This document shows positions 7,901 to 27,864 of a DNA stretch of 64,000 nt, piece by piece. The stretch lies in the IMG/VR virus record IMGVR_UViG_3300017774_004344, positions 1 to 64,000 of that record. One strand, written 5' to 3'. The notes under the pieces are model-generated. The model saw only the letters and a program-made list of their open reading frames with translations. It searched no databases and was not told where the DNA came from. Both the position numbers and the translations under genes were made by a program. Origin of the DNA: a virus. Position 1 is the first letter of the stretch. The number at the start of each line of letters is the position of its first letter.

Positions 7901-9325
7901 CTTATAGGCTTGATTTATGGTAGCGGGAGGAATACCAACTAAGGGCAATTCTATGTATTTCCCGGTAACCTCCAGGATGAGGTCTCGCTGCGCTGTGCTG
8001 CCGCTAGCATCAGCTACACGAATCGTTACAAACTGCTTGCCAATTACAGCTGTTGCGGCGTCACAGGTAACCCATCCAGACTTCGATACGGCAAACCCGG
8101 TAGGGATGGTGCCGCTTATAACATCCCACTGGTAGGGGTTGGCGGGTGTGATCTGAGTATAAGTGGAAGTTCCTGGGCCAATGCCGGTAACATTGCCACC
8201 CATTGCTTTTAGCTGAAAGCCTGCATACCAGGCATCACCATATTGGTGCGATGGTATCACTAGAGTCTCTAGCTCTAGAGGCTTGTTTTGCTTGGGGTCA
8301 GTGGGATCAATGACATATAGCTCACCGTTAAACGCATAAGATCCTCCAACTCCTAAAGGGGAGGTTGCAATTTTGATGATTGGATACCATGACCCGAAGG
8401 CCATCTCATACCCATCGACCACGATTCCATCCAACTTAGAGGCGTCTCCTCTCAGGGCAACAGCGCAGTTGTAGTCATTTGGCCGGTATAAGACGCAATC
8501 TGGATCCACATAAATGACTGTGGGGACAGCTACGTTGTAATCCCCAGCAAAACTGGAATCTTGGGCAGGATACACTAAAGTATTATTATTCCCCTGGATT
8601 GTTATTCTTGCGCCCACCTCAAGGTATCTTTTAATTCTGCAGTTTCCATTTATCTGGACGACACTGGTTCTTCCGACAAACCATTTACCAACCGTTGCTA
8701 TGCTGTTTATGTTGTAAACTACGTCCAGGGCTTTTTGTATTGATGGGTAGTCGTCGGCAATTCTGTTACCAACACAGCCGAAAAAATCAGCAGAAATAAA
8801 GTCATCCCATACCCTTCTCCACACTCCATTAGTGCCGGGGGCAGTCTCACCAACCCCGTTAAGAAAATTCTCAAGATTTGCCCTGGTCCCATTGTATGGA
8901 ACCGTGGGACTTATGAAAGTTCCGCCATCGTGAAGTGATTTAGGGGTGTCTGCTTCCCACTGAAACCATCCGCTTCCACGTGTGGTTTCGTATGGAGATG
9001 TTAAGATCAATACCGCTTCCTGATAGGAAACATAAAACCTTTTAACAAACACCATCCCCGACGTTGGGGCGGTTTGAAGATCTGAGATTGACCCAATTAT
9101 ACCTGATCCCCCTGTCTTTTCAACGAAGTCAGTATCTAAAATTCCGTTCCAGAACCAATACTCCGTAAGTTGCCCTGAAATGTACACCCCCGCAGTTAAA
9201 CCCTGGTAGCGAATAATGGGCTCAATGACCGATAACGCTTCGGCCGTGCTGTCGTAAGGCCCATAGCGTTCGTCAATTGCCTTGGGAGCTTGAACAATTA
9301 GGTTGTCATTTAGATTGATTGCCAT
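4964..9325 (-). CDS. large tail fibre/spike: pectate-lyase-like beta-helix, putative Ig (He_PIG-like) repeats, LamG-like domain
   Basis: FGCVGNRIADDYPSIQKALD; repeated GLxxxxxGxISGTP; KFGTGSFSFNG...FQGYMQQIRITK. Confidence 0.75.
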   Translation of the reverse strand: MAINLNDNLIVQAPKAIDERYGPYDSTAEALSVIEPIIRYQGLTAGVYISGQLTEYWFWNGILDTDFVEKTGGSGIIGSISDLQTAPTSGMVFVKRFYVSYQEAVLILTSPYETTRGSGWFQWEADTPKSLHDGGTFISPTVPYNGTRANLENFLNGVGETAPGTNGVWRRVWDDFISADFFGCVGNRIADDYPSIQKALDVVYNINSIATVGKWFVGRTSVVQINGNCRIKRYLEVGARITIQGNNNTLVYPAQDSSFAGDYNVAVPTVIYVDPDCVLYRPNDYNCAVALRGDASKLDGIVVDGYEMAFGSWYPIIKIATSPLGVGGSYAFNGELYVIDPTDPKQNKPLELETLVIPSHQYGDAWYAGFQLKAMGGNVTGIGPGTSTYTQITPANPYQWDVISGTIPTGFAVSKSGWVTCDAATAVIGKQFVTIRVADASGSTAQRDLILEVTGKYIELPLVGIPPATINQAYKYTFNVLNNDGVSHYWWIVNGPEGLVMNLTTGEVTGTPTANSFGQYTLKVAITSTTSTVNFEANTLIDEILIDLTVENTAFPSLYGSLSDAAVGVAYRGIIYPVGGVGPFTWQIDPARSTGNNQPGYPTTTSPAPGLNLSTDGIRALITGTPTTSGNFSFFLIGTDSTGKSVSGLMSFSGNTWAVRPQLKTSLIWNLPVAVKGQPYSYQVEATVSGCTFSAKALPSGLAISAEGLISGTPLGGRYANGVACEWSVKMSNFTVRNFRGAAGVKVDGPSNVHIFENFFINACDVGISSDNMFDSRLQSFYIYNTRIGLQMRGGTAANTYTNGRIEYIHEHGVTALFSPDNVWSTVYWDTCGYAAISADRSDYWTISGCFFFRGGRRVPPRGKYYMPDSPVDISTHIKAISCKDWVIGTNNMVRGCDNGGSSSTYLRRYESNGRRLYIRPYASIVLERCTGFKITGNGLDGCTRESVYSINSEFEFEYNDALLSGNTVHRTNQFETFSQNEQPVINLLKNPSKANFTPEGTEDNIDTYFPSNVLLLQGNEFVDRSTRALTLNNTNVTINTSVYKFGTGSFSFNGTNALLTVGVADNNNVAAPFYFGTDDLTLEFLVYPLRNNVSQTLIDFGATSESAPFALILDANGKLALARNRSTSGQTIDATSTRVIPINAFTEIRMTITRSVARVYIDTTLELTISFSGRFIISGFNRPIMGRGGFSGATDFFQGYMQQIRITKPVSRYGLLTILKPQTRAFSIVNLGSLPPDTLVYSPAAAETDFFFADRSNSIKLGPSASIQKPIYIIRRTKNDVVIDLRAGQGSYTAGQINPSYYIYRFQKAAEAGVTSYTFQTCEFRAWAARVGYPQELDKLRGKKMFLCLWARSNRKNSVSLFTQFYAGTSGNNFRADGGFHTKFNIPPFWRKYVFPIEVPDLDLTLIDPYTSNALLKFYFDDKSQTYDVEFGAMFFYENDGKFGFTPYNEEL

Positions 9326-9489
9326 TCTGGTATCTAATCAGGGGGGGTTCTAGTTACTTAATTGAGTCAAGCTTTTGCTTTTACGCGACTTGGTGAGCTT
9401 TCCACCGAATATTGAAAATACATTACAATAAATTCTACCCGCTTTGCTGGTTTGAGTTAGGTAAGGGCACATGGGAACAAAACGTACTA

Positions 9490-10128
9490 TCATATTCGCT
9501 GTAACTCCATGTTTACGGTGTAAAAACCTTTTTCTAGCATATATGAACTTTCTTCTGGCGCGTAGTATGGCTCGCTACTAAGGTCAATGAGTATACTGGG
9601 TACTGCACCTTGCTGAGTGGCGGCTGTTGTATTTAACTTAAAGCCCCCGGCAATAACTTCTACGTTTTCAATTGAAACTATTACTGGGGAAAGTTCATCC
9701 CAGGTAGCCGCCACAACATAGTCAACATTCGCATCAAGCTCTGGGCCGTTGGTAATGTCGAACCAACAATAATACGGCGCTACGGTTGGGGTGGTATCTG
9801 TAATGCAAGTAGCTGAGGCTAGGAAATCTTGCTGCCAAATGAGAACGGGGAGCCCAGGATTAGTAAAGTCCCATATTCCCACTGAATGATCCAAGGTAGA
9901 CGGTTGGTTGATCCGGGGCATTGCGGTAGGGTCAGCCTGAGTCGGCTTGTATATTCCAATGCGAGTAAGTTGTCGGTTAAAATCTGTGGTGAAATGGTAC
10001 CCTAGAATATAGGGTCCATCCGCCACTTCACGTTCGCTTACGTTTACGACAGGGGCCGTAGTGAACCCGAATGCCACCTCTATAGTGGGAGATGGGCTTG
10101 TCCAATATGGATTTAGTATGAAGGGCAT
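9490..10128 (-). CDS. beta-sandwich virion protein (DUF4082-like)
   Basis: LGYHFTT...IGIYK...HSVGIWD...YVVAA pattern. Confidence 0.45.
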   Translation of the reverse strand: MPFILNPYWTSPSPTIEVAFGFTTAPVVNVSEREVADGPYILGYHFTTDFNRQLTRIGIYKPTQADPTAMPRINQPSTLDHSVGIWDFTNPGLPVLIWQQDFLASATCITDTTPTVAPYYCWFDITNGPELDANVDYVVAATWDELSPVIVSIENVEVIAGGFKLNTTAATQQGAVPSILIDLSSEPYYAPEESSYMLEKGFYTVNMELQRI

Positions 10129-10129
10129 A

Positions 10130-11257
10130 TCAAGAATTTAGTAGTTGTATAGTGCCGCTCGTATTCGTGGCGTAGTCGCTGATGTAAATTTTATAGCTGA
10201 TGCCGGACCAATACCCATTCGGGGAATTAACAGCTCGGGTGTTCGGGGGCAGGATGAAATTTCCGGCACCAATCGACCCTTGGTTCAAAGGTGTATTAAA
10301 CCATTTTGTCTTTGTGGTATCTGCTGCAGGATGAGCGAACCAAATATATTCTGCTGAAGCGTCAAATGTAGCACTAATCGCCCCGCTTGCCGAAGCAAGA
10401 ACTTTCGTAGTCGTACCAGCTGCGATTGACGCTGCGATTGACTCTGCGGACGGTGCTGCCGAGGACTTACCCCAGAAGTAAGGGTAGATGCCGTTAATAG
10501 ATGCCGAACTCGAAGTTAAAGAGCCTGTGGTCTGTGGGGCATTGGCGGATAGTAATGCTGGGGGACGGGCATCGGTAGACCCTTTATTAGTTTTCTTTGC
10601 TAGGCCCGATGAGAAACCGCCAGTACCATCCCAAGTTGTTGTGCCCGCCGTCACGGTCAGGTCATTGGTATAACTGTGGGGGTAGGAAAAGTTCGGGTTG
10701 TTCGGGTTGGTGTAGCCGAATTGATCCGGTACATTCGCGTGGGGGGAACCCTGTGGACTAGATACGCTGCTTATCGTAGAGCCATCGTTCCTAAGGGTTA
10801 AAGTTCCGAAGACCCCTGCATCGTTTTTGATCCCAGTGACCATCAGGGCTTGAGAAAGTGAAGACCCGATCTCTTTGGTTCCGGATTGAGAAAAGGAAAG
10901 GGAAATTGTGGGGATTGTATATGTTGGTTGCAAAGTGGGGAACAAAATCGCATCTAAAACCTGGACAAGGTTTCTCGTCTTCCACACAGATGCGGGCTGA
11001 GCGATTGCACCCCCGACAGGGACGCTTTGTTCCGCATCGGTTACTAAGGTATTATATTGCGTTGACAGGTTTTGATCAGTTAAGGTAAGGCCAACATTGG
11101 GGTCGATGGTCACCAGAGTTTCATCACCTCCGCCTTGAGGGACAATTTCCCATGTCAAAGCTGCAGCGTTCCACTTGTATTGATTAACGCCGGGGACGGG
11201 GATTTCCGGGAATAATTGCCCATTGGTGGGGCTATCTGGGAAGACGATCACCGTCAT
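10130..11257 (-). CDS. virion structural protein
   Basis: N-terminal FPDSPTNGQ motif shared with other fibre genes; Ser/Thr-rich. Confidence 0.6.
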   Translation of the reverse strand: MTVIVFPDSPTNGQLFPEIPVPGVNQYKWNAAALTWEIVPQGGGDETLVTIDPNVGLTLTDQNLSTQYNTLVTDAEQSVPVGGAIAQPASVWKTRNLVQVLDAILFPTLQPTYTIPTISLSFSQSGTKEIGSSLSQALMVTGIKNDAGVFGTLTLRNDGSTISSVSSPQGSPHANVPDQFGYTNPNNPNFSYPHSYTNDLTVTAGTTTWDGTGGFSSGLAKKTNKGSTDARPPALLSANAPQTTGSLTSSSASINGIYPYFWGKSSAAPSAESIAASIAAGTTTKVLASASGAISATFDASAEYIWFAHPAADTTKTKWFNTPLNQGSIGAGNFILPPNTRAVNSPNGYWSGISYKIYISDYATNTSGTIQLLNS

Positions 11258-11448
11258 TGCGAACTAGATGGGGGCACTGTCTAGTTTTACCCTTGTTGCG
11301 GTTAGTTTGGATAAAACATGGGGAATAGATGCCGGGAGTAAAAGTTCAGTCGTTGTTGGGCTGCTATAGCGAAACCCTTGGGACTTGGCCCATTTGAGCA
11401 GAGACTGCTCAAGGTCGAAGCATTCTCCGAGGGTGGCGTGGTGGTTGT

Positions 11449-12039
11449 CTACGACAACCTTATCCGGTTGGATGTGTCAATACCTCTTTTCATTTGGTAC
11501 CGAGAAAGGGAAGCTGCATTTGTTACAAACCCTGTAATGGTACACTGCCAACGCTGAGCCGTTGCTTTCCTTCCGCTCGCGCTCCTGACTTCTGGAGGAG
11601 TTCTAGAGCCCCCTTTCTTGCCGGCTTCTGACTTTACGTCCCTGGGCTGGTTCTTGCCACCTCTAGATTTAGCTTCTTTGGGGCAATTCTTGCCACCTCT
11701 GGATTTAGCTTCTTTAGGGACTCGAGTTCCCCCTATTTTCCCAGCTCTACTTTTATGCTCTTTGTACCACTTTTCATATAGGCCTAACCATTCGGGGTAA
11801 TACAAAGATAATAGATTACGATCCCAGTGTACCCGATAACCGTGGATACACGGTCTCTGTAGCTCTTCGCTCTGAACTACTCCGTGAACAGAGTGATCTC
11901 TAGACCACAGTCTGATTACCCTTGTACCACCATCGCATTTGGGAATAGGGTAGTGGGCTTCTTCCCAGTGTTCTTCCTCAGGTAACTGTTCCAATCTGTA
12001 TTTTACCAGACAGCTTTCAATCCATTCTTCTTGTGTCAT
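11449..12039 (-). CDS. free-standing HNH-like homing endonuclease
   Basis: EEAHYPIPKCDGG...DHSVHG followed by basic tandem repeats (PKEAKSRGGKN x2, KSEAGKKGG); directly downstream of psbA. Confidence 0.65.
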   Translation of the reverse strand: MTQEEWIESCLVKYRLEQLPEEEHWEEAHYPIPKCDGGTRVIRLWSRDHSVHGVVQSEELQRPCIHGYRVHWDRNLLSLYYPEWLGLYEKWYKEHKSRAGKIGGTRVPKEAKSRGGKNCPKEAKSRGGKNQPRDVKSEAGKKGGSRTPPEVRSASGRKATAQRWQCTITGFVTNAASLSRYQMKRGIDTSNRIRLS

Positions 12040-12046
12040 TACTCGC

Positions 12047-12092
12047 AGAAAACCTCCATGGTAGATTATACCACGGAGGCTAGAGTAGTAAA
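12047..12092 (-). terminator. hairpin after psbA overlapping a sigma70-like promoter and the RBS of the endonuclease
   Basis: Minus strand CCTCCGTGGTATAATCTACCATGGAGG-TTTT; TTTACT-N16-TATAAT with a TGn extension. Confidence 0.6.
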
Positions 12093-12106
12093 GTTTCTCT
12101 AGAAGC

Positions 12107-13186
12107 TCAACCGATAGTTGGTGTGGTTAAAGAAACTGGTGTTGCAGTGGCAGTGGCCAGATCAAGGGGAAAATTGTGGGCATTTCTTTCGTGCATAACT
12201 TCTAAGCCCAAATTCGCTCTATTCAATACATCGGCCCAAGTATTAATCACTTGCCCTTTATTATCCTGAATAGATTGATTGAAGTTGAAACCGTTCAAGT
12301 TAAATCCGGCAACGAAAATTCCACAAGCGGCAAACCAGATTCCAATAACAGGTAAAGCTGCCATAACGAAATGCAATGAGCGACTATTGTTAAAGGAAGC
12401 ATATTGGAACAAAAGACGCCCCAAATACCCATGGGCTGACACTAAATTGTAGGTTTCTTGATTTTGCCCGAATTTGTAACCATAGTTCTGGCTTTCATTT
12501 TCAGTCGTCTCCCTCACAAGAGAGGAAGTAACAAGGGAACCATGAGTTGCGCTAACTAATGCACCACCGAAAACACCAGCTACCCCTAGCATATGGAATG
12601 GCGACATTAAGATATTGTGTTCAGCTTGGAAGACCAACATGAAATTAAATTGACCTGAGATTCCTAAGGGAAAACCGTCCGAAAACGAACCTTGGCTCAT
12701 AGGGTAGGCCAGGAAAATAGCCGTAGCAGCAGCTACTGGTGCTGAATAAGCTACACAAATCCATGGACGTTGCCCTAAACGGTACGATAGTTCCCATTCA
12801 CGACCCATGTAGCAGTAAATACCAATCAAAAAGTGAAACACAATCAGTTGATATTCACCACCATTGTAAAGCCATTCTTCAAGAGTTTGAGCTTCCCAGA
12901 TTGGATAAAAGTGCAGTCCAATCGCATTTGAACTTGGGATAACGGATGCGGAAATTATGTTATTTCCGTACATTAAAGAACCAGACACCGCCTCCCTAAT
13001 ACCGTCAATGTCTGTCGGAGGCGCTGCGATAAACGCCACAATAAAGCAGATGGTTGCGGCCAAGAGGCATGGAATCATCAAAGTTCCAAACCACCCAACA
13101 TACAACCGGTTGTTAGTGGAAGTTACCCACTGACAGAACGACTCCCAAGTATTAGCCTTGGGTCGCTGTAAAACAGATGTTGCCAT
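12107..13186 (-). CDS. psbA: photosystem II D1 protein (divergent)
   Basis: [31 protein letters not shown]; D170, E189, H332, E333, D342, A344, Y161 and H190 are all retained. Confidence 0.99.
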
Positions 13187-13189
13187 TGA

Positions 13190-13310
13190 AAAAAGAATTA
13201 AGTAAGTGGCTTGAGGGTGAAGCCTGTTTACATAATCCTCACTACCCTAAGGTGAGGCAGGATAAGGGACGGATTGGCTTGCCTAGTCCCGGTAGCGGCA
13301 AGGCGGGGTG
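13190..13310 (-). ncRNA. structured psbA 5' leader (PhotoRC-II-like cis-regulatory RNA)
   Basis: Stem CTTGCC/GGCAAG whose loop GGGAC can pair with downstream GTCCC (pseudoknot), then a CCTCAC/GTGAGG stem; location matches cyanophage psbA leader motifs. Confidence 0.5.
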
Positions 13311-13332
13311 TAGAACCACCCGCTACAAAGGT

Positions 13333-13359
13333 ATCATAGCATACGTAAAGTTTGGTAAA
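13333..13359 (-). promoter_or_regulatory. host-type promoter of psbA
   Basis: TTTACC-N15-TATGAT with a TGn extension. Confidence 0.45.
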
Positions 13360-13490
13360 CGTTGATTTGGAAACTTTTGGACGGTTTACCGAACCCTTTC
13401 GCTGACGCGAAAGACTTTACCGCCAGGGTAGTTGGATTCCTAATAACCGCCGTCTATTGGGAAAACAACTACTTTCCGGAAAGCGTAGGT

Positions 13491-14172
13491 TCAAGGGTTT
13501 GTATGAATGAAAACTGTACCTTCAGGGCTTTTCACCACTTTCTCTACCCTAAGGGGTGTGTTCCTTGGTGAAATATGCTCTTGCTGATCCTGAAACTCCT
13601 CCGGAGCATACCTGCTGGCGTTCCTAAACTCTTTACTACGCGAAATTATAATGACAGGAACACTTCCTGCTTGGTTTGCAAACATATCAGCTTGTTCTCT
13701 ATCAGCACTAAAAGAACCGAACCCCTCATCGTTAAAAATTTTCGTCTGTTGAACCTTTCTCAGTAAACCAGCAGCCGTCTCCGGGTCTAGGTCCATGCCC
13801 CTGTACATTGTCACTCCTTTGGTATTTCGTGGCAACTTACTCAATGCCTCGTCCATTAGCTTAACTTGGCCCTTCTCTTCATCCGTGAGAGGACCCTTCG
13901 TCAGTCCACGAAGCTTCCAGTTTGTATTCAGCATACTTGCAGTTTCCATACTTCCCCCGGTCATATAGTTCACTAGGGTCTTTTCCTCTCCCTGAGAGAG
14001 GGGTTTAGGTTTCTGGTGGGGTGTTTTTCCTGCCGGAAGCTGCTCTTGCAGGGTAGCTAAGGCTTCACGGTCTCTTCGCGCCTTGTCCCTCCAGCGTTTA
14101 GCATAAGCGTGGTCTCCTGTTCGAGTTTGATACGCTTCTGCCCCTCCGCTTCTTTTATACTCTTTTTCAGCT
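13491..14172 (-). CDS. ADP-ribosyltransferase (VIP2/Alt-like, R-S-E class) domain; frame is open well upstream of the called start at 13973
   Basis: YRG...GFGSFS...QDQQE motifs; the upstream in-frame sequence reads ...REALATLQEQLPAGK...PLSQGEEKTLVNY. Confidence 0.8.
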
Positions 14173-14377
14173 TAGTAATTTTCTTACGTACCTCCTTAAG
14201 GTCTAACTCCTCCTCCGTGCCTTTTCTACATTCTCCCCCTGTTCCATATGCAGTTCCATTAGGGCGAACGCAACGGGTGAAGTCGTAAGTTTCTCTTTCA
14301 GCGAAATTCACCCCCTGTAGTTCACTCAGGAGTTGAGAATAAGTGGCAAGTGCCTCTTCAGAAATGTATCCTTTCAT
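14057..14377 (-). CDS. leader-family protein (RCVRPNG motif); likely N-terminal part of the ART gene
   Basis: MKGYISEEALATYSQLL...NFAERETYDFTRCVRPNGTAYGTGGECRKG. Confidence 0.65.
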   Translation of the reverse strand: MKGYISEEALATYSQLLSELQGVNFAERETYDFTRCVRPNGTAYGTGGECRKGTEEELDLKEVRKKITKLKKSIKEAEGQKRIKLEQETTLMLNAGGTRREETVKP

Positions 14378-14614
14378 TTTTCGACTATGAGTCGTTGCTT
14401 CTTCAGCCCTCTGCTTCACTAGCGCCGCTCTAATAGTCTCTTTGTCCGGCACCCTAGCTTTTTTCAAGGCGGCAGCGAATTGTTCCTTGGCAGCCTTCGA
14501 CCGTATCCCGCCACCGTGCTCCGCTGCTACACTGTTGCGAATGTTAGCATGCTCCATCATCATGTTCGCCAAGTGTTGCCCTTTCAACGGTTTAGGGGTT
14601 GCCGCCTCCCCCTG

Positions 14615-15838
14615 TTACTTTCCCGCTGCTCTTTCTTCTACACGCTGTTTCGGAGTCATCGTTTGAGCTTTCAAACCTGCAATAGCTGCCGCCTGCTCTT
14701 TCAGCTTCTTGCTCAGAGGGTCATTACGACCTACTTTTCCACCACCTTTGACAATTTCGTCAATCTCGTTAGAAGTTTCCAGCAGGTCGGACTTTAACTT
14801 ACCGAGTTTACCCTCCGCCTCTCTTCGGTCAATTTCCTTCCTCAAGTTATCCTTTCGAGAAGTTGTCTTTGCTCTGTTCCATTCCGTCTCAAGGTCTTCC
14901 TGAGAAAGGGCCTTTAAACGGTCCGAAGACAACTTAAGAGGGCGGCCCATTTCATCGCGAATAGCGTTCGGAGTTTCTGGGCGGTCGGCAATAATTCCCT
15001 TAACTTCAGCCTGACTGCGCAGAATGCCGGGGACTGGATCTTTAATGGGCTTCGATGGTACTGGTGCCGTAGCGATTTCTCCCGAACTGCCTCCTCGGCC
15101 CCCTACCTTCTCTTTTAAATCGGGATATTCTGCCAGAACGTTAGGGGGGACGGTTTTTCCCAAGGTAATGGCAGCCTGAACACGTAGCTTATGCATATCG
15201 CCTGTAGCTGCTGATATAAACTCAGGGGTACCGGGATTCAATCCTGCTTGTTCAGCTAATTTTATTCTTTCTGAAACTGTGCCATCACCTCCAGACGGAG
15301 GAAGCCCTTTATTTCCTTTCTTATTCCACTCTTCAATTGCTTTCCGTCTTTCTTCAGCCCTGTAACTATTATACTGTTCTTTTGACATCTCGTGTGGTTG
15401 TACATTCGCAGAAGCTAGTGTCTTAGAAGTTTCTCCCGAACTTTTACTACTCTCCTTGGTTTCTTTACCAAAGACACCCCCTGAACTTGTTACAATCTTT
15501 TCCCCCTTCGGAAGCATCTGTTGCAACTGAGAGAGGGCATCGTGCTCTTCCTTCTCTGCAGGGGTGCCCTTGCGGCAGGTTCCTCCGGTGCCGTAGGCAG
15601 TGCCATTGGGGCGAACGCAGCGGGTGTAATCGTAATTTTCAATATACTCCCCTCGAACCTCACCAAAGTCAGCAACGTTGCCAGACCAAACATCGCCCTG
15701 AGTGGCGCCAGGATTGATTCCAAGTTCAGAGAAAGTCTGCAGTCCGGCCGAATCCGGAAGGGCAGAAGTTTCGTAACCTGCTTCTCGCATCAATTCGAGA
15801 AACTTTTCGGCTGAGTCAGGGGTGAAAGAACCGTGCAT
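14615..15838 (-). CDS. leader-family protein with unknown C-terminal region
   Basis: MHGSFTPDSAEKFLELM...DFGE...YDYTRCVRPNGTAYGTGGTCRKG. Confidence 0.8.
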   Translation of the reverse strand: MHGSFTPDSAEKFLELMREAGYETSALPDSAGLQTFSELGINPGATQGDVWSGNVADFGEVRGEYIENYDYTRCVRPNGTAYGTGGTCRKGTPAEKEEHDALSQLQQMLPKGEKIVTSSGGVFGKETKESSKSSGETSKTLASANVQPHEMSKEQYNSYRAEERRKAIEEWNKKGNKGLPPSGGDGTVSERIKLAEQAGLNPGTPEFISAATGDMHKLRVQAAITLGKTVPPNVLAEYPDLKEKVGGRGGSSGEIATAPVPSKPIKDPVPGILRSQAEVKGIIADRPETPNAIRDEMGRPLKLSSDRLKALSQEDLETEWNRAKTTSRKDNLRKEIDRREAEGKLGKLKSDLLETSNEIDEIVKGGGKVGRNDPLSKKLKEQAAAIAGLKAQTMTPKQRVEERAAGK

Positions 15839-15948
15839 AACATTTACCTTGCATACAGTATCTTACCCTTTCTACCTTGCAGAAACAAGCCAGGGAACCG
15901 AACCAGGCGATTCGATTTACCGCCCTTTGCGCAGCAAAGACCGCCCTT

Positions 15949-16440
15949 TCACAAATCCGCTATCTTGCTCTGCTCTTTCCTCAATCGCTTCACAAGCACT
16001 CTCAAAGTGTCCAGGCCGTTCTTCGCTTCCACCGAACTTTGTAGTTTCCGTTGTAAACTCAAGATCTCATCCATTGTATCTTTGAACCACTGGTCCCTCT
16101 GCTTCGGTGTAAGCCCAGCAAAGGGTAAGTTGACACGACTCATATCGTACTCGTTCGCTTTTGAAGGCAAGGAACTTCGCAACTTAACCATTTGCTCCTC
16201 GTTTGCCTTTAACTCCGTTACCAACCGCTGAAGGTTCGAGAGATTAACACCGCTCTTTATAAACTTTTCAATCTCCGCTTCCAGGCCCCAAACTCTTTTC
16301 AAAGAGTCCCAAAAAGTTGGCGAACTTACGCTGTGAGCGAAGTTATATACTATACCTTCCTCTGCGAAGTTGGCTTCGTTCTCTTGAGAAACAAGTTTGT
16401 TGAAGGCATTTAGAGAGTCTTGAGAGAAAGATCCGATCAT
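15949..16440 (-). CDS. leader-family coiled-coil protein (lacks the Cys motif)
   Basis: MIGSFSQDSLNAFNKLVSQENEANFAEEGIVYNF. Confidence 0.7.
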   Translation of the reverse strand: MIGSFSQDSLNAFNKLVSQENEANFAEEGIVYNFAHSVSSPTFWDSLKRVWGLEAEIEKFIKSGVNLSNLQRLVTELKANEEQMVKLRSSLPSKANEYDMSRVNLPFAGLTPKQRDQWFKDTMDEILSLQRKLQSSVEAKNGLDTLRVLVKRLRKEQSKIADL

Positions 16441-16464
16441 TGGTCTTAGGGTTTCTAGTAAGGT

Positions 16465-16680
16465 TTACCCTCTTTTTTCTTCCTCCCGTATACACTCTTT
16501 CAACCCAGAGACATACTCTCTTAGCATTTGCGCTTGTCTCAAGTGTCTCGCATCACATGTCCTAAGGTGCAGAGACACGTGCCTATCTATTGCATCTAGG
16601 CAAGTTTTTATCACGGGGTTCCAAGGTTCCCTAATTTCCGTATTGTAGGATCGTCTCGAAGTTTCTTCAAAAGTGCTCAT
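16465..16680 (-). CDS. cyanophage-type hypothetical protein
   Basis: REPWNPVIK..LDAIDRH...A..LREYV..LK. Confidence 0.6.
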   Translation of the reverse strand: MSTFEETSRRSYNTEIREPWNPVIKTCLDAIDRHVSLHLRTCDARHLRQAQMLREYVSGLKECIREEEKRG

Positions 16681-16762
16681 TGTTTTCTCCCGTCTCTGGA
16701 AGCTTGGCCAACGCTTTCAGGCCAGAGGCCATATGGTCTATTTTGCTATTTCGATCACAAAC

Positions 16763-16921
16763 TCAGTAAGCCATAAGGGAGTAAACTTCCTCGGTGCTTA
16801 ACCCGCCGCTTTCCTCCACAGCTCTCAGAATCCGGTCTGCTTTCCCCTCTGCTTCGGGGGTGCCTTGGCGAATGAGTTTCTTTCTCTCAATCATTGCCCT
16901 TAGGTTCTTGCTTTGGTTCAT
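16763..16921 (-). CDS. 52-aa protein coupled to the upstream kinase
   Basis: ATGA overlap with the kinase stop; MNQSKNLRAMIERKKLIRQGTPEAEGKADRILRAVEESGGLSTEEVYSLMAY*. Confidence 0.6.
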   Translation of the reverse strand: MNQSKNLRAMIERKKLIRQGTPEAEGKADRILRAVEESGGLSTEEVYSLMAY

Positions 16922-17703
16922 TGCTCTAATCTCGATAAATCTTTTAGGTAGGCTTCTGCAATTTCAATCCTCTTGGCTTTCGCTGCTTTGCTGGTTGAAC
17001 GACCTAGAGTAGTGTAAGCATTTAGGTGCCTATTTACAACTTGAAAGTAAGGGTCGGAGGCCAACTCGGGATTGCCCCATCCAACCAACTTTGCAATTTT
17101 GGAAAGATCCTGCATTACGCGGGAAGGCTGCTTAGAAACTGGAACGCTTAAGCCAAAGTCTACCAACTTCACGTTATTACCATCAACAAGAAATTGCTGT
17201 GAGTGTGCATCCCCGTGGGCAAACCCCATATTATGCAAGTCTCGAAGGGCATACCCGGCTTTCTTGGCTTGGGCTGCGTTCATCATAGGCTCGTTTTCAC
17301 CCCTAGTGTAAGTTTCCCAGAGAGGAGAACCCTTGGCAACATCCATTTCAATGTGAGTATCGCTACTTGAACGAATACTTGGAGAGTGACCCAACTTCCC
17401 CATTTTCGTGGCCAATTCAACTTCATAAGGACCAAACTCACCCCACCTTCCGCCTTCGCCCTTGAACAAAGTTTTCACAACCCTCTCTCCATCGGGACTC
17501 ATTGAAACTTTTCCGTTGTTGCCTTGGGCTAGAACCTTCCATTCAGAGTAAGGGACTTTTATCTCTAGAGATTCTCTCAAGTTTTCTAGACCCTTGCCCG
17601 CATAAGGAGGCAATATAGCCGAGCAGCGTTTGTACTTTGAAATACAAGCCTTCGCGCAACTTTTACCCTTTGAACACTTTTTCGGTTCAACTGGTTTATT
17701 CAT
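16918..17703 (-). CDS. protein kinase (RIO/Bud32-like fold) with N-terminal Cys4 motif
   Basis: AQGNNGKV, VVK, HGDAHSQQ, VDFGLS; N-terminus CSKGKSCAKACISKYKRC. Confidence 0.8.
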   Translation of the reverse strand: MNKPVEPKKCSKGKSCAKACISKYKRCSAILPPYAGKGLENLRESLEIKVPYSEWKVLAQGNNGKVSMSPDGERVVKTLFKGEGGRWGEFGPYEVELATKMGKLGHSPSIRSSSDTHIEMDVAKGSPLWETYTRGENEPMMNAAQAKKAGYALRDLHNMGFAHGDAHSQQFLVDGNNVKLVDFGLSVPVSKQPSRVMQDLSKIAKLVGWGNPELASDPYFQVVNRHLNAYTTLGRSTSKAAKAKRIEIAEAYLKDLSRLEQ

Positions 17704-18536: not shown

Positions 18537-18881
18537 TCAATCTGGAAAGTCAGAGTCTAACATATCCCTTGCTGTCTTGAGTAGATTATCTGTGGTTTTA
18601 TCAGAAGATTTACCAACTTTTGCGCCCAAGCGATAGAACTTGTCGGCTTCATCATAGTACCCTGCATTCTCAAGTCGAATGCCTATTGAATTTAAAGTCG
18701 AAGAAGCTTCTGCTTTCGCAGCCTTACTATCTACTCGAGAGTTGTCAAAGTCCATGATTACAGGTCGGTTCTTACTTTCGTCCCACTTTAAGTTTCCGCC
18801 ATGTAAATCCTCGTGACTCACTCCGCGTTGATTCAGCAATAGAGAGGCTTTGTAAGCTTGTTGTGAGAAAGATCCGTACAT
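18537..18881 (-). CDS. leader-family protein fused to a kinase C-lobe only (deletion derivative or pseudokinase)
   Basis: MYGSFSQQAY runs directly into GVSHEDLHGGN...IMDFD; no Gly-loop or Lys N-lobe. Confidence 0.65.
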   Translation of the reverse strand: MYGSFSQQAYKASLLLNQRGVSHEDLHGGNLKWDESKNRPVIMDFDNSRVDSKAAKAEASSTLNSIGIRLENAGYYDEADKFYRLGAKVGKSSDKTTDNLLKTARDMLDSDFPD

Positions 18882-19546
18882 TACTTAACTTCTTCAGAAA
18901 ACTCGTTTCTCTCTACTTTACGAGCAACTTTAGCCAAACGTTGTAAGTAAGGGTTGTCTCCAAACTCTTTCCTCAAGCCTTCGGTATCCCCAGAGTCTAT
19001 CATTCTACGAATGGCGCTGCTACTTGATCCTGACGAATCTCGAGGTATAGTATCAGTTTTCACTCCCAAAGACTTTCCGATGGTTTCAAGAAACTTCTGC
19101 TGGTCCTCACCTAGCATGAACAAAACTTTTTCCTTGCCTGACTTTTCAGCGAGACTTTTCAGCACCGAAGCCGCAGAGCTACCTTGGACTAGCTTCACCC
19201 TGTTAAGGTCCACGCCTTCCTTTCTTAACACGGCCCTCAACATCTGTGCTCGGAAATCTTTATCAACATTCTTTTCACCCTTACCCAACACAACGTGAAC
19301 CACTGGGGCTTTCTCAAGCATTCCTTTAATTAGTTTAGCATGTCCGCTATGAGGAATGTTGAATCTGCCTTGTGTTACTGCGGCTTCGTAAGGGTAATCC
19401 TTTTGTTTCTCAGTTCCTTTGCGACATTTGCCGCCGGTTCCATAAGCTGTTCCGTTGGGGCGAACGCAACGAGTGTAATCCAGAGTTCCCGACAACATTT
19501 CTCTAATGGTGTCTAAAGAACTATTGGTGAAATTTCCGGTACTCAT
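18881..19546 (-). CDS. leader-family protein with HxGH nucleotidyltransferase (cytidylyltransferase/NMNAT-like) domain
   Basis: DYTRCVRPNGTAYGTGGKCRKG, then GRFNIPHSGH...GED...SSSAIR. Confidence 0.8.
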   Translation of the reverse strand: MSTGNFTNSSLDTIREMLSGTLDYTRCVRPNGTAYGTGGKCRKGTEKQKDYPYEAAVTQGRFNIPHSGHAKLIKGMLEKAPVVHVVLGKGEKNVDKDFRAQMLRAVLRKEGVDLNRVKLVQGSSAASVLKSLAEKSGKEKVLFMLGEDQQKFLETIGKSLGVKTDTIPRDSSGSSSSAIRRMIDSGDTEGLRKEFGDNPYLQRLAKVARKVERNEFSEEVK

Positions 19547-20533: not shown

Positions 20534-20707
20534 TTAAAGGTAAGCCCCACCTAAGACAGCATCTTCACTCACGTCCCCCTTCTCTCGAAGCTTCATCGCA
20601 GCTTCAAGGTACGGGTTTGCACCGTCTCTAAGTTCCCCACGCCGTTCCTTGTATCGAGACATGAGTGCAATGTACTGTGCGTCGTTTTTTCCTGTGGTTC
20701 TTTTCAT
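20534..20707 (-). CDS. 57-aa protein coupled to the upstream kinase
   Basis: TAATG overlap; MKRTTGKNDAQYIALMSRYKERRGELRDGANPYLEAAMKLREKGDVSEDAVLGGAYL*. Confidence 0.6.
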   Translation of the reverse strand: MKRTTGKNDAQYIALMSRYKERRGELRDGANPYLEAAMKLREKGDVSEDAVLGGAYL

Positions 20708-22134
20708 TAAATCCCCTCGTAGAGTGTGTTAATCACTTCCATAGCTTGCGTATCACTTAGCTTAGCCCAAGCTCCCTCCTTATATTTCTTGTCGGGAGTT
20801 CGAAATCTGGTTTTAAGGACTTTATCTAAGTCCCCACCTTCTATCCCGAAACGTCGAAGTTTCTCGATGGCTCTCTCTTTGTTTGTGTACGCTTTGTAAG
20901 CTAACGGAGCGTCTTCTTTCAGGAATTCTAAGTAATGAGCTCTTTGCTTTGAAGGGATATTCTTTCTTTCAACGTCTGCAATCAGGTTTCCGCCGGGACC
21001 CCATGATGAAAAGGCTGAGTCTCCGCTTTCACCTTTTGGACCGGAAAAAGCACCCAATGCCTCTGCGAGAGCTGCTTTTGGGTTGTCTTGTGCCAGGCCC
21101 ATGTCAACGAATCGCCCCTTTCCTGTCTTATCTACCAGAACGTTGTACCCGTGCATATCGTTATGGGCAATCCCCATTCTATGTAAATCGGCCCGAGCTT
21201 TCCAATAGGCCTCGGCGCCATCTCTACTGAACTTCGTGCCTAACGGCTCTCCTTCAACTTTTGTCATAGCAATACGACCTTCTCTTAAGTCTACGACCCT
21301 AGATTTAAAGCGAGAGGGTTCACCTATATCCGCAGCAATCAACTTCGGCCCTAAGTCCGCTCTACCGACTTTATCTACGATAGCAGCTTCTGTTCGACTA
21401 ATTACACCTCTCTTAATAACTTCGCCGTTTGGACTTAAAATTGCTGTACCGTACATACCCGACCCTAGCACCTTAGCTTCCTTACTAAAAGTGCCGCCCC
21501 AACCGCCATATTCGGGGTCTCCTTGTCTTACGTGGTTGCTTTTTTCGATGTTAGAGTCTAATATAGCGGCTTTTTCTTCTTCTTGGGATAAACCAGCTGA
21601 GTTGACTTTCTTAGTGGTTTCCCTTGGGCTCCGGTGCTCCTCAAGAATGCTCCTGATGTCGTCCAGAACTTCCTTCTTCGTCGCTTTTGCTCCGCCACTT
21701 TGACCCTCACCGGACCCTGACCCCGACGCTCTTTGTTGTGGCAAAGCCGAGACTTTTGTGTTGGTAGCCGATGAAGGTTTCCGTTTGGCCAGGAGCTTAT
21801 TCACCTGCTCTCTCTGTTTATCATTCAGCCTCGGGTCGACCAAAATTTTCTTCAGTTCTTTAACTGGCAGCGACTTCACCCTAGCGGTCAAGCGCATCCT
21901 GCCGGGGGTCACTTTTTTCTCGGGTTCTTTCGCCTTTCCCCTTATGTTGGGGATAATCTCTTTGACTTGCTCTGTTCCTTTGCGACACTTTCCTCCCGTA
22001 CCGTAGGCACTGCCGTCCTGTCTCACACAGCGCGTAAAGTCGTAAACTTCTTTTTCAGAAAAATTGAATGAATGTTGTTCTACAACCAGCGCCTCGTATG
22101 CTTGAAGAGCTTCGTTAGAGAAAAAATCTTTCAT
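20707..22134 (-). CDS. leader-family protein kinase
   Basis: NFSEKEVYDFTRCVRQDGSAYGTGGKCRKG; LGSGMYG, VIK, HNDMHGYN, VDMGLA. Confidence 0.85.
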   Translation of the reverse strand: MKDFFSNEALQAYEALVVEQHSFNFSEKEVYDFTRCVRQDGSAYGTGGKCRKGTEQVKEIIPNIRGKAKEPEKKVTPGRMRLTARVKSLPVKELKKILVDPRLNDKQREQVNKLLAKRKPSSATNTKVSALPQQRASGSGSGEGQSGGAKATKKEVLDDIRSILEEHRSPRETTKKVNSAGLSQEEEKAAILDSNIEKSNHVRQGDPEYGGWGGTFSKEAKVLGSGMYGTAILSPNGEVIKRGVISRTEAAIVDKVGRADLGPKLIAADIGEPSRFKSRVVDLREGRIAMTKVEGEPLGTKFSRDGAEAYWKARADLHRMGIAHNDMHGYNVLVDKTGKGRFVDMGLAQDNPKAALAEALGAFSGPKGESGDSAFSSWGPGGNLIADVERKNIPSKQRAHYLEFLKEDAPLAYKAYTNKERAIEKLRRFGIEGGDLDKVLKTRFRTPDKKYKEGAWAKLSDTQAMEVINTLYEGI

Positions 22135-22388: not shown

Positions 22389-23116
22389 AGCACTGTTTCT
22401 AAAGAGCCGTGAGCTATGGCCTGAAGCTCATAAAATTTCTCAGCGGCCCATTCTCTTTCTTCCGGAGACATATCTCTGTTTTCGACATACTTAAGAACCA
22501 TATTCAGCTCGGACTCTGACAATCTTTTCATAGAATTTACAAGTTCAGGAGAAACAACGTAAGGTTTAACGTCGTCATCGTTGAAGATAAACTCTCGGGT
22601 CGTCCAGTCTTCTGGATTAGAGTCGTAGGAAACATGGTAGTTATGTGTGGCCATGTCTACCATCAAAATTTTCGACTCTGTTAAACCTAGCTCTTTGGCA
22701 ATTTCTTCGTAAGTTTTGTTTTGCTTGAGAAGTTCGTCAACCTGGGTTTTGTACTTGGCGACCCACCGTGGAGTTTTCACCATGCGAGAGTAATCTCTCA
22801 AAGCGTGTTGAATGTAACCTCGAGCAGTTCTCCAAGCGAAGGTGCTAAATTGAACTTTCTTGTTAGGCTCATATCGAGTTGCAGCTACGCACAAGGCGAA
22901 GTTCGCTATGGACTCAAGGTCTTCTTTTGTAAGAGAACCCGTATAACCACCCGTGGAGCACTTAGCCCCATAAGCAAGCCTACCCGCTATCCATTTATGT
23001 TCGCACACTAAACGTTGTTGCTCAGCAGAGAGTTCCGGGTATCGTCTGTGGCGTCTTTTCTTCATGTCAAGCCTCGCAACTTTGGCATTCGTTGTACGGG
23101 TTGTTTGAGTCTTCAT
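22385..23116 (-). CDS. RNA polymerase sigma factor (sigma70 family, SigF-like)
   Basis: EDLESIANFALCVAATRYEP...FSTFAWRTARGYIQHALRDYSRMVKTPR; HTH EEIAKELG. Confidence 0.85.
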   Translation of the reverse strand: MKTQTTRTTNAKVARLDMKKRRHRRYPELSAEQQRLVCEHKWIAGRLAYGAKCSTGGYTGSLTKEDLESIANFALCVAATRYEPNKKVQFSTFAWRTARGYIQHALRDYSRMVKTPRWVAKYKTQVDELLKQNKTYEEIAKELGLTESKILMVDMATHNYHVSYDSNPEDWTTREFIFNDDDVKPYVVSPELVNSMKRLSESELNMVLKYVENRDMSPEEREWAAEKFYELQAIAHGSLETVL

Positions 23117-25013
23117 AGGCGTTTGCCGTTGCGTTGGTGTTTAACTGTTTGTAGTCTACGTAATCAGTATAGCCACCTATGTGCTTTTTGTAAAGCCATA
23201 ATTGAGGGACAGTTGTCCAGTCGGTGTTCCAAAACCCTTTTTCTTCAGCTTCCGCTTTTGTGATTTCTTCATAGCGGATTCCATCCGCAGCTAGTTCTTC
23301 TTTTAGTTTCACACACCAGGGACAGTCGTCTTTTGTAACGACAAGGGCGGGAATAATCCTGCGATTCGTTAAAAGTGACGACGACTTGAGATAATACAAC
23401 GACTTCAGACCCATCTTCCATGCCGACAAATGCAGTTGCATAATATATGCAGCAGAGGCGGTCGGGTCCACAAACAGGTTGAGTGACTGACCTTGGCAAA
23501 TAAACCTCTGACGATCTGCAGCCTGTTTCACAAGCTCAAACTGGTCGATCTCGCGGGCAGTCTTAAATACTTCCTTCTCGTGGTCAGTGAGGCAGTCGAG
23601 ATCTTGAACGCTACCCTTGGCCTCAAGGATTTGTTCCCAAACCTCATCCTTCACCCCTCTTTCGCAGAACAGTTTTTCAAGGGCAGGGTTTTTTCGAACA
23701 TAGGTACCTTTTGCTTGTTTGGCGACGAAATAGTTAAAAGCTATTGGTTCCACCCCCTCTGATCCCGCCCCACATATGATGCTGTTGGTTTTGGTGGGAG
23801 CTATTGCTAATAGGTGCGTGTGACGCATTCCAGAACCACCACACCATTCTGGTTCCCCGAACTTTTTGGCAAGCTCTCTAGAAGCCTTTTCCGCCTCACT
23901 TTGCACAAACTGGTGGGTCTCAATGTTTAGTATTCGCGAGTCCTCGGAGGCAAAAGGTAACCCTCGTTTCTGGTACAGTGCGTGTAGACCCATAGTTCCG
24001 AGTCCAAGCGCCCTTGACTTCTTAGCAAACCTAACAGCACGACCCATTCCAACTTTACTTTCGGCCTTATGTATAAAGTCCGTAACAACTGCATCCAAAA
24101 GATGGATTGCAAGTTCTGGCACTGAACGCAAAGTGGAAGGGGACCGCCAATCTTTCCATTCATCATAGCGTGCAAGATTTAGGGAGGAAAGGACGCAAAC
24201 AAAGGAGTGATTTTCGTCCGTGTGGAGCATAATTTCACTGCAAAGGTTTGAAGTTGAAACTTTAAGGTTTCTTTCTTTGTAGCAAAGGGGGCTTTGGTTA
24301 TTCGCGTTGTCGGTAAACATTAAATAGGGTGATCCCGAGATCATCCGAGTTCTGAGCACCTCACCAAACAATTCTTGTTTTCTGTGATCACCCTCCATCA
24401 TAGATTCTATCCACTCGTCAGGGATAGTCAGGGCCAGGTTACCATCTATAAAATTACGTGGATCACCCTTACTATGGTCTTTTGTCCGTAGTAACTCAAG
24501 TAGGTCAGGGTGAGATATGGGCAAATAGTGCGAAAACGACCCACGGCGTACGCCACCTTGAGAGACAACTCTGGCGGCTAAGTCGAACTGCTGGGCCCAA
24601 GGAACCACACCAGTTGCCTTTCCCCCTCCACTTATGGGGGACCCGGATGGCCGCATGTCTCCGTAGTAAATACCAACTCCGCCCCCCATTTTGGAAAGTT
24701 GGGCTGTCTCTTTGAGGTGACTATACACCGAAGAAACAGAGTCGCTCAAATGGACGGAGTAGCAAGATACAGGGAGGCCCCGACTTGTGCCGAAGTTGGA
24801 GCAAACTGGGCTCGACCCTCCGAGCCAACCATTTTCCAACAAGGTGAATAGATCCTTATCCAGAGTTTCATCTTCGTTGATTCGGGCAGCCGTGCTGGAC
24901 ATGCGCTTAAACATCCCGGAAGGGGTTTCCCCAGGAATAAGGTAACCCGAGGAAAGCGTATGAAGTGCTTCTTCAGTCATCCACTGCGGGTGGGGGGAGT
25001 CTGTTTTAATCAT
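23067..25013 (-). CDS. nrdA: class I ribonucleotide reductase large subunit with inserted glutaredoxin domain
   Basis: PVSC, SNLCSEI, IAPT, QGQSLN, KSLYY; CPWC...TVPQ...IGGYTD; terminal CQSCEA. Confidence 0.95.
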   Translation of the reverse strand: MIKTDSPHPQWMTEEALHTLSSGYLIPGETPSGMFKRMSSTAARINEDETLDKDLFTLLENGWLGGSSPVCSNFGTSRGLPVSCYSVHLSDSVSSVYSHLKETAQLSKMGGGVGIYYGDMRPSGSPISGGGKATGVVPWAQQFDLAARVVSQGGVRRGSFSHYLPISHPDLLELLRTKDHSKGDPRNFIDGNLALTIPDEWIESMMEGDHRKQELFGEVLRTRMISGSPYLMFTDNANNQSPLCYKERNLKVSTSNLCSEIMLHTDENHSFVCVLSSLNLARYDEWKDWRSPSTLRSVPELAIHLLDAVVTDFIHKAESKVGMGRAVRFAKKSRALGLGTMGLHALYQKRGLPFASEDSRILNIETHQFVQSEAEKASRELAKKFGEPEWCGGSGMRHTHLLAIAPTKTNSIICGAGSEGVEPIAFNYFVAKQAKGTYVRKNPALEKLFCERGVKDEVWEQILEAKGSVQDLDCLTDHEKEVFKTAREIDQFELVKQAADRQRFICQGQSLNLFVDPTASAAYIMQLHLSAWKMGLKSLYYLKSSSLLTNRRIIPALVVTKDDCPWCVKLKEELAADGIRYEEITKAEAEEKGFWNTDWTTVPQLWLYKKHIGGYTDYVDYKQLNTNATANAYEDSNNPYNECQSCEA

Positions 25014-27616: not shown

Positions 27617-27660
27617 TTTGAACAGCGTTGTTGTTTATTGAGAAATTAACTGAAAAGGAA

Positions 27661-27864
27661 TCACCAAACTCCAGGGATAATCTGGCCGGTAAGGGCGTAA
27701 GAGCCGAGTGCAGCAATAACTCCAAGCATGGCCATCCTGCCATTAAGAGTCTCTCCGACGGAGTCCCAAGCTACCATAGGCCGATAGTTGTCATCGACAG
27801 GGGTCATAGTGGGTTCTTTGGCGTAGATGTTGTTGCGATTACGATCTTCGGTGGTTACGGTCAT
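27661..27864 (-). CDS. hli: high-light-inducible protein
   Basis: ETLNGRMAMLG...TGQIIPGVW. Confidence 0.92.
   Translation of the reverse strand: MTVTTEDRNRNNIYAKEPTMTPVDDNYRPMVAWDSVGETLNGRMAMLGVIAALGSYALTGQIIPGVW

Follow-up and report, generated by a model that had tools for sequence, protein, structure and literature searches.

We suggest that the psbA gene at positions 12107-13186 of the DNA stretch analysed here is probably a working auxiliary gene for the photosystem II protein D1, which belongs to a derived viral lineage, was remodelled stepwise and was acquired by recombination. The stretch, called the window below, comprises the first 64 kb (64,000 nucleotides, nt) of the 91.6-kb linear IMG/VR virus record IMGVR_UViG_3300017774_004344, which has a CheckV completeness of 40%. 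The encoded protein, referred to hereafter as the query, retains its water-splitting site in full and carries substitutions at many otherwise fixed positions beside the chlorophyll ChlD1 and in the QB pocket.

12107..13186, (-) strand: psbA, encoding a 359-residue pre-D1 of a derived viral lineage (open reading frame, residue look-up, tree and selection)

The open reading frame (ORF) is uninterrupted, with 359 codons and no internal stop. Its product matched the Pfam family Photo_RC (PF00124) at E 1.2e-86 (290.6 bits against a cut-off of 27) and could be aligned end to end and without gaps with Synechocystis D1:2 (6wj6_A, E 1.5e-201) and with Thermosynechococcus PsbA3. An Rfam scan of positions 9000-16000 found neither an intron nor any other RNA family, and the gene is intronless. 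Retained residues were read by a scripted column look-up in an alignment of the query and all full-length members of its clade, with the set of residues required for a complete Mn4CaO5 ligand shell, for YZ-H190 and for the second sphere taken from PMC4408414. The ligands D170, E189, H332, E333, D342 and A344 are all present in the query and across the clade, and YZ (Y161), H190 and the second-sphere residues D61, N181 and N298 are kept clade-wide. The query also keeps E65, H118, Q165, S169, V185 and H337, the P680 ligand H198, the PheoD1 residues Y126, Y147 and E130 (the last being of the high-light type), and a complete acceptor side, made up of H215 and H272 for the iron, H252, S264 and F265 for QB, and E244 and Y246 for bicarbonate. 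Because A344 is followed by a 15-residue C-terminal extension, the CtpA processing site is in place. This bears out the earlier note on this DNA, which had described all the water-splitting ligands and the listed cofactor residues as intact. That note was also right that the signature of chlorophyll f synthase (ChlF) is absent, as the M127-G128 pair is present.

Every substitution that had been listed in the note was found (P66A, G80A, P111E, M139Q, G164S, M172F, T179Q, H195S, F211V, M214T, QEEET to QNQET, F255L, F274V, L275M, W278L, T286A and GVSTMAF to GIFVAGF), together with A81S, F124Y, V157I, I163M, I248L, A250S and L288C, and the residue table agrees with its statement that the changes are gathered in the QB pocket and beside ChlD1. 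How unusual this is can be judged against 89 cellular standard D1s (the 80 best loci, drawn from one genome per species across about 185,000 species, plus paralogues from five cyanobacteria), in which 216 of positions 12-344 are at least 99% invariant. The query deviates at 21 of these sites, as against a median of 3 for viral and 0 for cellular D1s, 13-14 for the microaerobic D1' references, 12 for a far-red D1, 40 for a rogue D1 and 60 for ChlF. Its deviation pattern exceeds chance. The description of the protein as highly divergent therefore holds for the invariant sites but not for the protein as a whole, since identity to canonical D1 is still ~80% overall, with the divergence gathered at normally fixed sites.

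Nor is the allele the lone oddity that it had seemed to be. A search of 5.8 billion proteins recovered relatives at 82-86% identity (P0013, P0016, P0018, P0019, P0020 and P0021), which carry most of the query's odd residues. The query's own cluster at 90% identity holds 27 sequences and the sister clusters hold 85, 25, 3 and 1, so that the query belongs to a derived lineage which recurs among viral and metagenomic D1s from lakes. In a tree of 283 D1s rooted on D2 (LG+gamma; FastTree only), the query clade received supports of 0.982 and 0.993, and a tree from residues 58-344 only gave 0.987 and 0.998. Within the inner clade, the query branches as sister to all 17 other sequences (support 0.987), and the query clade forms the tip of a ladder within the picocyanobacterium/cyanophage part of Group 4 D1. 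The references for D1' (L176_1, L188_1), far-red D1 (L190_1), ChlF (L190_2) and rogue D1 (L192_1) branch elsewhere. A phylogeny including rogue, far-red and phage forms, as the earlier note had proposed, thus places the query inside Group 4 and away from all four of these types. A microaerobic D1' origin, hinted at by G80A and T286A, was ruled out by F158 and the tree, and since the query branches in Group 4 and retains F158, these two changes are convergent with Group 3. A ChlF, rogue or far-red identity was ruled out by the residue table, the ligand look-up and the tree.

The derived residues shared by the lineage are A66, S164, F172, Q179, S/N195, T214, L248, L255, V274, M275, A286, C288, F291 and G294. 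Only M139Q and E242N are special to the query sub-lineage; of the 27 sequences in the query's 90% cluster, the 14 others that were listed all have Q139, N242 and Q243 wherever they extend over these positions. The residue table orders the remaining changes along the ladder. F124W is seen in P0085; P111E, F211A and W278L in P0174 and L038; the QB set (F211I/V, M214T, I248L, F255L, F274V and L275M) in P0080 and the P0033 cluster; and the donor-side set (G164S, M172F, T179Q, H195S/N, L288C, S291F, T292M/V, M293S/A and A294G), together with G80A, in P0016 and the inner clade, to which V157I and A81S are confined. On this order of residues the changes came stepwise, the QB-pocket set first and the ChlD1/YZ-side set second. 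Natural forms with a single set exist in both directions: members of the P0033 cluster carry the QB set alone, and in the P0019 group the donor set is combined with canonical residues 209-278. Some residues of the QB set (V211, L255, V274, L278 and Q243), plus Q130, are also carried independently by the D1s of Nodularia (P0064) and Nostoc (P0107), and these two Nostocales proteins suggest that a QB-pocket variant arose more than once.

Selection was assessed over codons 58-300 from the proportions of non-synonymous (pN) and synonymous (pS) differences between the query and its sister genes. Against the clade sisters, pN was 0.055-0.069 and pS 0.71-0.79, i.e. saturated, and the ratio of the corresponding rates (dN/dS) within the clade was 0.02-0.05. 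Two canonical D1s from related phage backbones gave a pN of 0.073 and a pS of 0.78 when compared with each other, likewise saturated, which indicates similar constraint. Because pN is low at saturated pS, as in the canonical pair, the derived residues have long been held at the level of constraint that is normal for D1. As the gene is intact and under purifying selection, the changes are not the product of relaxed-selection decay, a possibility that had been raised in the earlier note together with dN/dS as the way to check it.

The gene is carried by a phage, as that note had taken it to be: the record is an IMG/VR virus record, phage genes lie around psbA, and the region is colinear with a cultured phage. 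The record encodes tail fibres, a tape-measure-like protein, the alpha and beta subunits of ribonucleotide reductase (RNR), a primase, thymidylate synthase, pieces of an exonuclease and a polymerase, and an endolysin. The primase shares 55% identity with its counterpart in Synechococcus phage S-CBWM1 (Aokuangvirus), and 27 ORFs are colinear with a region of S-CBWM1 that includes its psbA. Contigs of 189-282 kb carry D1s that are identical or nearly so, which makes a phage genome of well over 200 kb probable. The 91.6-kb record yielded no psbD, so the variant must pair with host D2. At all key sites, the D1 of S-CBWM1 (translated from three spliced exons) has the canonical residues, and the D1s of the metagenomic backbone relatives L198 and L199 are canonical too. 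The flanks of the clade sisters L193-L197 and L268 share no genes with the window and hold blocks of glycosyl- and methyltransferases instead. With canonical D1s in the backbone relatives and the clade sisters lying among unrelated genes, the derived allele crosses phage backbones.

The gene itself records such a crossing. Comparison with L199 and with the clade sisters divides it, with its upstream region, as follows.

13094..13186, (-) strand: 5' psbA segment of backbone (resident) ancestry (identity to L199, maximum chi-squared test)
12107..13008, (-) strand: core and 3' part of psbA, of derived-lineage ancestry (residue table, identity profile and tree)
13187..13490, (-) strand: upstream intergenic region and 5' leader of psbA (alignment with L199)

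Over residues 1-57 the query and the L199 D1 are identical, whereas within the first 40 alone the clade sisters show 11-16 differences, and the first 90 nt have 95% identity to the L199 psbA versus 55-58% to clade sisters. From about nt 180 on, the clade sisters are closer than L199. This core and 3' part carries both the ChlD1/YZ-side set (V157I, G164S, M172F, T179Q, H195S, L288C, S291F, T292V, M293A and A294G) and the QB set (F211V, M214T, I248L, A250S, F255L, F274V, L275M and W278L). The maximum chi-squared test placed the breakpoint at nt 93-178 of the gene (about 13009-13094 of the window); to its left, 34:1 to 50:6 informative sites favour L199, while to its right the ratio is about 100:145 (permutation p<=0.0005 for each of four sister sequences). 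On the simplest reading, an allele of the derived lineage would have overwritten a resident canonical psbA, except for its 5' end, via homologous recombination. Upstream of the gene, partial conservation with the corresponding L199 sequence extends over the proximal ~110 nt (approximately alignment columns 205-315); no consensus sigma-70-like site was found in 13187-13490.

Some of the related alleles are interrupted. They include P0181, P0182, P0187 and P0188 of the query's 90% cluster, of which some members diverge at residue 335 and end at 341, as would be expected from read-through into an intron at the known 334/335 site. The sister loci L197, L258, L259 and L268 are also among the interrupted alleles, several of them with matches 240-260 nt longer than the gene.

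Two further features lie directly downstream of psbA.

11449..12039, (-) strand: free-standing 196-residue ORF, a candidate mobile nuclease (partial homology to S-PM2p181)
12065..12092, (-) strand: promoter-like site TTTACT-16 nt-TG-TATAAT, between the psbA stop and the downstream ORF (10/12 match to consensus)

The N-terminal half of the ORF shows, as judged by eye, an HNH-like H...DH..H pattern, and residues 87-195 share 36% identity (E 8e-11) with S-PM2p181; in phage S-PM2 this ORF comes after that of the homing endonuclease F-CphI, in the interval from psbA to psbD. No homologue of it was present in any of the fetched sister loci. Nuclease-assisted conversion of psbA is thus plausible, though the sister loci, which lack the ORF, give no sign that ORF and allele were transferred together. 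The number of promoter-like sites in the region equals the expectation from shuffled sequence.

All clade members with a readable context are on IMG/VR contigs (L012, L193-L197, L258, L259 and L268), and the T179Q motif occurs on only 11 IMG/VR contigs, with more than 600 stretches matching psbA patterns. A search of 401 genomes from the picocyanobacterial order recovered no clade member (top identity to the clade member P0013, 77%), and the 80 best cellular loci included none either; their top identity to the query was 81%, with canonical residues. The lineage was therefore seen only on viral or metagenome DNA, and its restriction to viruses is supported by this sampling, though not proven. 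At least half of the sampled words of the locus are contained in nine freshwater or lake DNA runs, and in run X4, which was not flagged as a possible source, the full 2.6 kb is covered at no less than 99% identity. Very deep 31-mers at 12957-12984 are conserved psbA words of other organisms. Two metatranscriptome runs from two studies contain exact psbA fragments of 203, 136 and 235 nt without any differences, and a third holds a 95% relative; the contigs from these RNA runs cover parts of psbA only and none of its flanks, although such missing coverage carries no weight as evidence. These fragments are a weak hint of transcription. Literature searches returned no published description of the lineage, and what they did return dealt with marine D1 variants or with atypical D1s of cells; a 2026 preprint on cyanophage D1/D2 makes no mention of T179, M172, F211, M214, F255 or L275, and phages go unmentioned in the D1 survey by Cardona et al. 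2015.

Several of the altered positions have well-defined roles. M172 is 3.7-3.8 A away from ChlD1, and the water ligating ChlD1 forms a hydrogen bond with T179; calculations count both residues among the pairs that stabilise ChlD1* and ChlD1+ over their ChlD2 counterparts (PMC7368266). As M172 and T179 tune ChlD1, the primary donor should have its site energy and its redox potential shifted by M172F and T179Q. M172L and T286A mark known tuning sites in PsbA variants (PMC12107152), and T286A should remove a hydrogen bond to PD1. F255 makes the largest attractive contact of the QB head, F211 touches the QB tail, and M214 and F255 touch atrazine (PMC4030317). A QB niche without three phenylalanines, and with Thr214 and Met275, should have an altered affinity for quinone and inhibitors and an altered QA-/QB- equilibrium. 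The assembly factor Ycf48 touches D1 at the backbone of I163 and G164.

Taken together, these residues allow a tentative course of events to be drawn. The lineage would have evolved stepwise from an ordinary cyanophage or picocyanobacterial Group 4 D1. In the first step, F211I/V, M214T, I248L, F255L, F274V, L275M and W278L would have remodelled the QB pocket, with the loss of three phenylalanines including F255, the chief stacking partner of the QB head. In the second, M172F, T179Q, G164S, H195S/N and the changes at residues 288-294 would have altered the surroundings of ChlD1 and the YZ-side packing. The water-oxidation, P680, pheophytin (E130), iron and QB hydrogen-bond sets would have been retained throughout both steps. 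By homologous recombination, the allele would then have entered an S-CBWM1-like phage and replaced its resident canonical psbA apart from the first ~100-175 nt, and the nuclease-like ORF just downstream may have promoted this recombination. During infection of a freshwater picocyanobacterium, the phage D1 would be made and inserted into host photosystem II in place of the fast-turning-over host D1. In the resulting photosystem, the site energy and redox potential of ChlD1 may be shifted and the QB site may be looser and more aliphatic; the changed quinone or inhibitor affinity and charge-recombination balance might suit an infected cell with an over-reduced plastoquinone pool. It may be that such a virus-specific photosystem II is tuned to limit damaging recombination in the infected cell.

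A number of points weigh against this interpretation. The effects on quinone exchange, pigment tuning and turnover, as well as their direction and size, are ones that we infer from residue identities, and compatibility of the variant D1 with host D2 is assumed. Synonymous saturation bars an estimate of dN/dS on the stem branch, so there is no test for positive selection there. Most clade members are metagenome proteins without contig context, and IMG/VR calls can include cellular fragments. DNA carry-over is a possible source of the psbA fragments in the RNA libraries. Finally, neither Pfam nor PHROGs gave a family for the downstream ORF, even at E 10, which leaves its assignment as a nuclease without family support.

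Other explanations for the allele can be weighed against the same evidence. Cyanophage psbA genes in general are host-derived and are exchanged with hosts, and the allele could have been copied from a D1 isoform of an unsampled freshwater cyanobacterial host, the odd residues being a host invention. The cellular Nodularia and Nostoc D1s with V211, L255, V274 and L278, and the unread context of most clade members, would fit such a copy. However, neither the 401 genomes of the picocyanobacterial order nor the 80 best cellular loci contained a clade member, all of the clade members that could be inspected are on IMG/VR contigs, and the ladder intermediates are themselves viral or metagenomic. We therefore regard a host copy as unlikely. 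It is also quite unlikely, in our view, that the changes represent near-neutral or mutually compensating drift without adaptive retuning, tolerated since a phage D1 works only for hours. Viral D1s in general do carry slightly more changes at cell-invariant sites (median 3 versus 0), the changes are mostly conservative in volume and hydrophobicity, and the catalytic residues are all kept. Against drift, the derived residues are fixed across synonymous saturation at a dN/dS like that of canonical D1, the changes strike the very residues that tune ChlD1 (M172, T179) and bind QB (F255, F211, M214), and hundreds of other phage D1s, equally short-lived, keep these sites.

Conflict with a homing endonuclease, in which the divergence would confer immunity to a psbA-targeting nuclease such as the product of the neighbouring ORF, is suggested by the domain that this ORF shares with the F-CphI-adjacent ORF of S-PM2, by the recombinant nature of psbA, and by the known occurrence of nuclease genes at the boundaries of genetic exchange in phages (PMC10055350). 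Immunity would need mostly synonymous changes in one target of ~20-30 bp, whereas here ~20 replacements are spread over 230 codons and are conserved in phages without the downstream ORF, and the query has a canonical sequence around the known F-CphI/intron site (codons 330-340). Such a conflict could explain the spread of the allele but not the remodelling of the protein, and as a cause of the latter it is very improbable. Scarcely credible is a departure from water oxidation to another job, like that of ChlF or the rogue/sentinel D1s. It would account for the many changes at otherwise invariant sites, and A80, A286, L255, L278 and S195 are common to the query and ChlF; yet the Mn4CaO5 ligands, YZ-H190, D61, N181, N298 and the CtpA site are kept clade-wide, M127-G128 is retained instead of the QD of ChlF, and the tree places the query inside Group 4, far from ChlF and rogue D1.

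Beyond the preferred reading of a working, stepwise remodelled and recombined viral D1, a bolder version can be entertained as a real but minor possibility, namely that lake cyanophages have evolved a distinct reaction-centre design within a gene pool of their own. In this version, Gln179 would act as a new axial ligand or hydrogen-bond partner of ChlD1, Phe172 would remove an energy-lowering sulfur contact, and the de-aromatised QB pocket would loosen the binding of quinone and inhibitors, resulting, in infected cells, in less harmful charge recombination or in tolerance of natural QB-site inhibitors; the two sets of changes would form separable modules, spread between unrelated phage backbones by nuclease-assisted gene conversion.

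The window contains several other genes of note. Directly upstream, a 160-residue ORF at 13491-13973 (-) matches the Pfam family ADPrib_exo_Tox at 27 bits (cut-off 23.4), and it is possible that its product is a phage ADP-ribosyltransferase encoded next to a photosynthesis gene. Four ORFs (14057-14587, 14615-15838, 18881-19546 and 20707-22134) share a near-identical N-terminal motif, YD(F/Y)TRCVR(P/Q)(N/D)G(T/S)AYGTGGxCRKGT, located as follows.

14228-14272, 15575-15619, 19424-19468 and 21985-22029, all (-) strand: YD(F/Y)TRCVR motif sites

The C-terminal parts behind the motif are unrelated, one being kinase-like and one cytidyltransferase-like, and the motif is present in the backbone relatives L198 and L199 too; it may be a shared targeting or packaging module. 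A frame resembling high-light-inducible (hli) genes (Chloroa_b-bind; sub-threshold, at 17.6 bits and E 2.4e-4, with one TGA within the match) lies at 27658-27771 (-), in the position of the S-CBWM1 high-light-inducible gene gp145. The RNR large subunit at 23067-25013 (-) has a C-terminal thioredoxin-like stretch (PHROG 22, residues 557-630) and no intein; the S-CBWM1 orthologue is interrupted by an intein. On the clade-sister contig L197, a block of glycosyl- and methyltransferases lies upstream of psbA, and ~2 kb downstream of it the region 13387-17364 (+) encodes a 1325-residue protein with a weak match to the Phycobilisome-protein family (PF00502, 26 bits against 22.2).

D1 is among the most conserved of proteins, and this lineage alters M172, T179, F255, F211 and M214 yet keeps the water-splitting site. 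M172 and T179 are the residues that calculations credit for the role of ChlD1 as primary donor, and the QB/herbicide niche is shaped by F255, F211 and M214. A natural, long-conserved variant of this kind is thus a ready-made experiment on the limits within which the primary donor and the QB site can be retuned, and the natural single-set intermediates allow a direct test of what each set contributes. In terms of virus ecology, the lineage shows phage photosynthesis genes to be more than copies of host genes: they can diverge into virus-specific forms and can move between phage lineages by recombination within the gene. What is new here is the S-CBWM1-like backbone with canonical D1 in its relatives, the supported intragenic mosaic and the nuclease-like ORF adjacent to psbA.

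The closest known systems are the cyanophage D1s (S-CBWM1 gp155, S-PM2 PsbA, Sf-CH11 and S-RIM2), which like the query are phage-borne Group 4 proteins with E130 and a full catalytic set, at about 78-82% identity. As in S-CBWM1, the psbA neighbourhood has a sigma factor and RNR on one side and tail-fibre genes on the other. Unlike the query, the D1s of cultured phages keep P66, G164, M172, T179, H195, F211, M214, F255, F274, L275, W278 and STMA at 291-294, and the S-CBWM1 psbA has two group I introns where the query gene has none. Group 3 D1' is marked by A80, L158 and A286 together (PMC4408414). Like these proteins (Synechocystis PsbA1 and T. elongatus PsbA2), the query has A80, A286 and a residue other than Met at 172; unlike them, it has F158 rather than L158, F rather than L at 172 and no Q130, and it lies away from the Group 3 references L176_1 and L188_1, which branch near the base, so that the likenesses are convergent.

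The far-red D1 and ChlF of Chlorogloeopsis fritschii PCC 6912 (L190_1 and L190_2) are, like the query, natural variants altered around the reaction-centre chlorophylls, and ChlF also has S195, L255 and L278. Unlike the query, ChlF is without the ligands of the oxygen-evolving complex and stands in a separate clade with its 60 invariant-site deviations, while far-red D1, with 12 and likewise in a clade of its own, has M/L172, T179 and a canonical QB pocket. In the laboratory, Synechocystis D1-T179 mutants (His, Val) were reportedly used by Schlodder et al. 2008 to assign and shift the ChlD1 absorption band. In those mutants, as in the query, the residue that hydrogen-bonds the axial water of ChlD1 is changed; unlike these point mutations, however, Gln179 in the query is natural and stands alongside M172F and about 20 other fixed changes.

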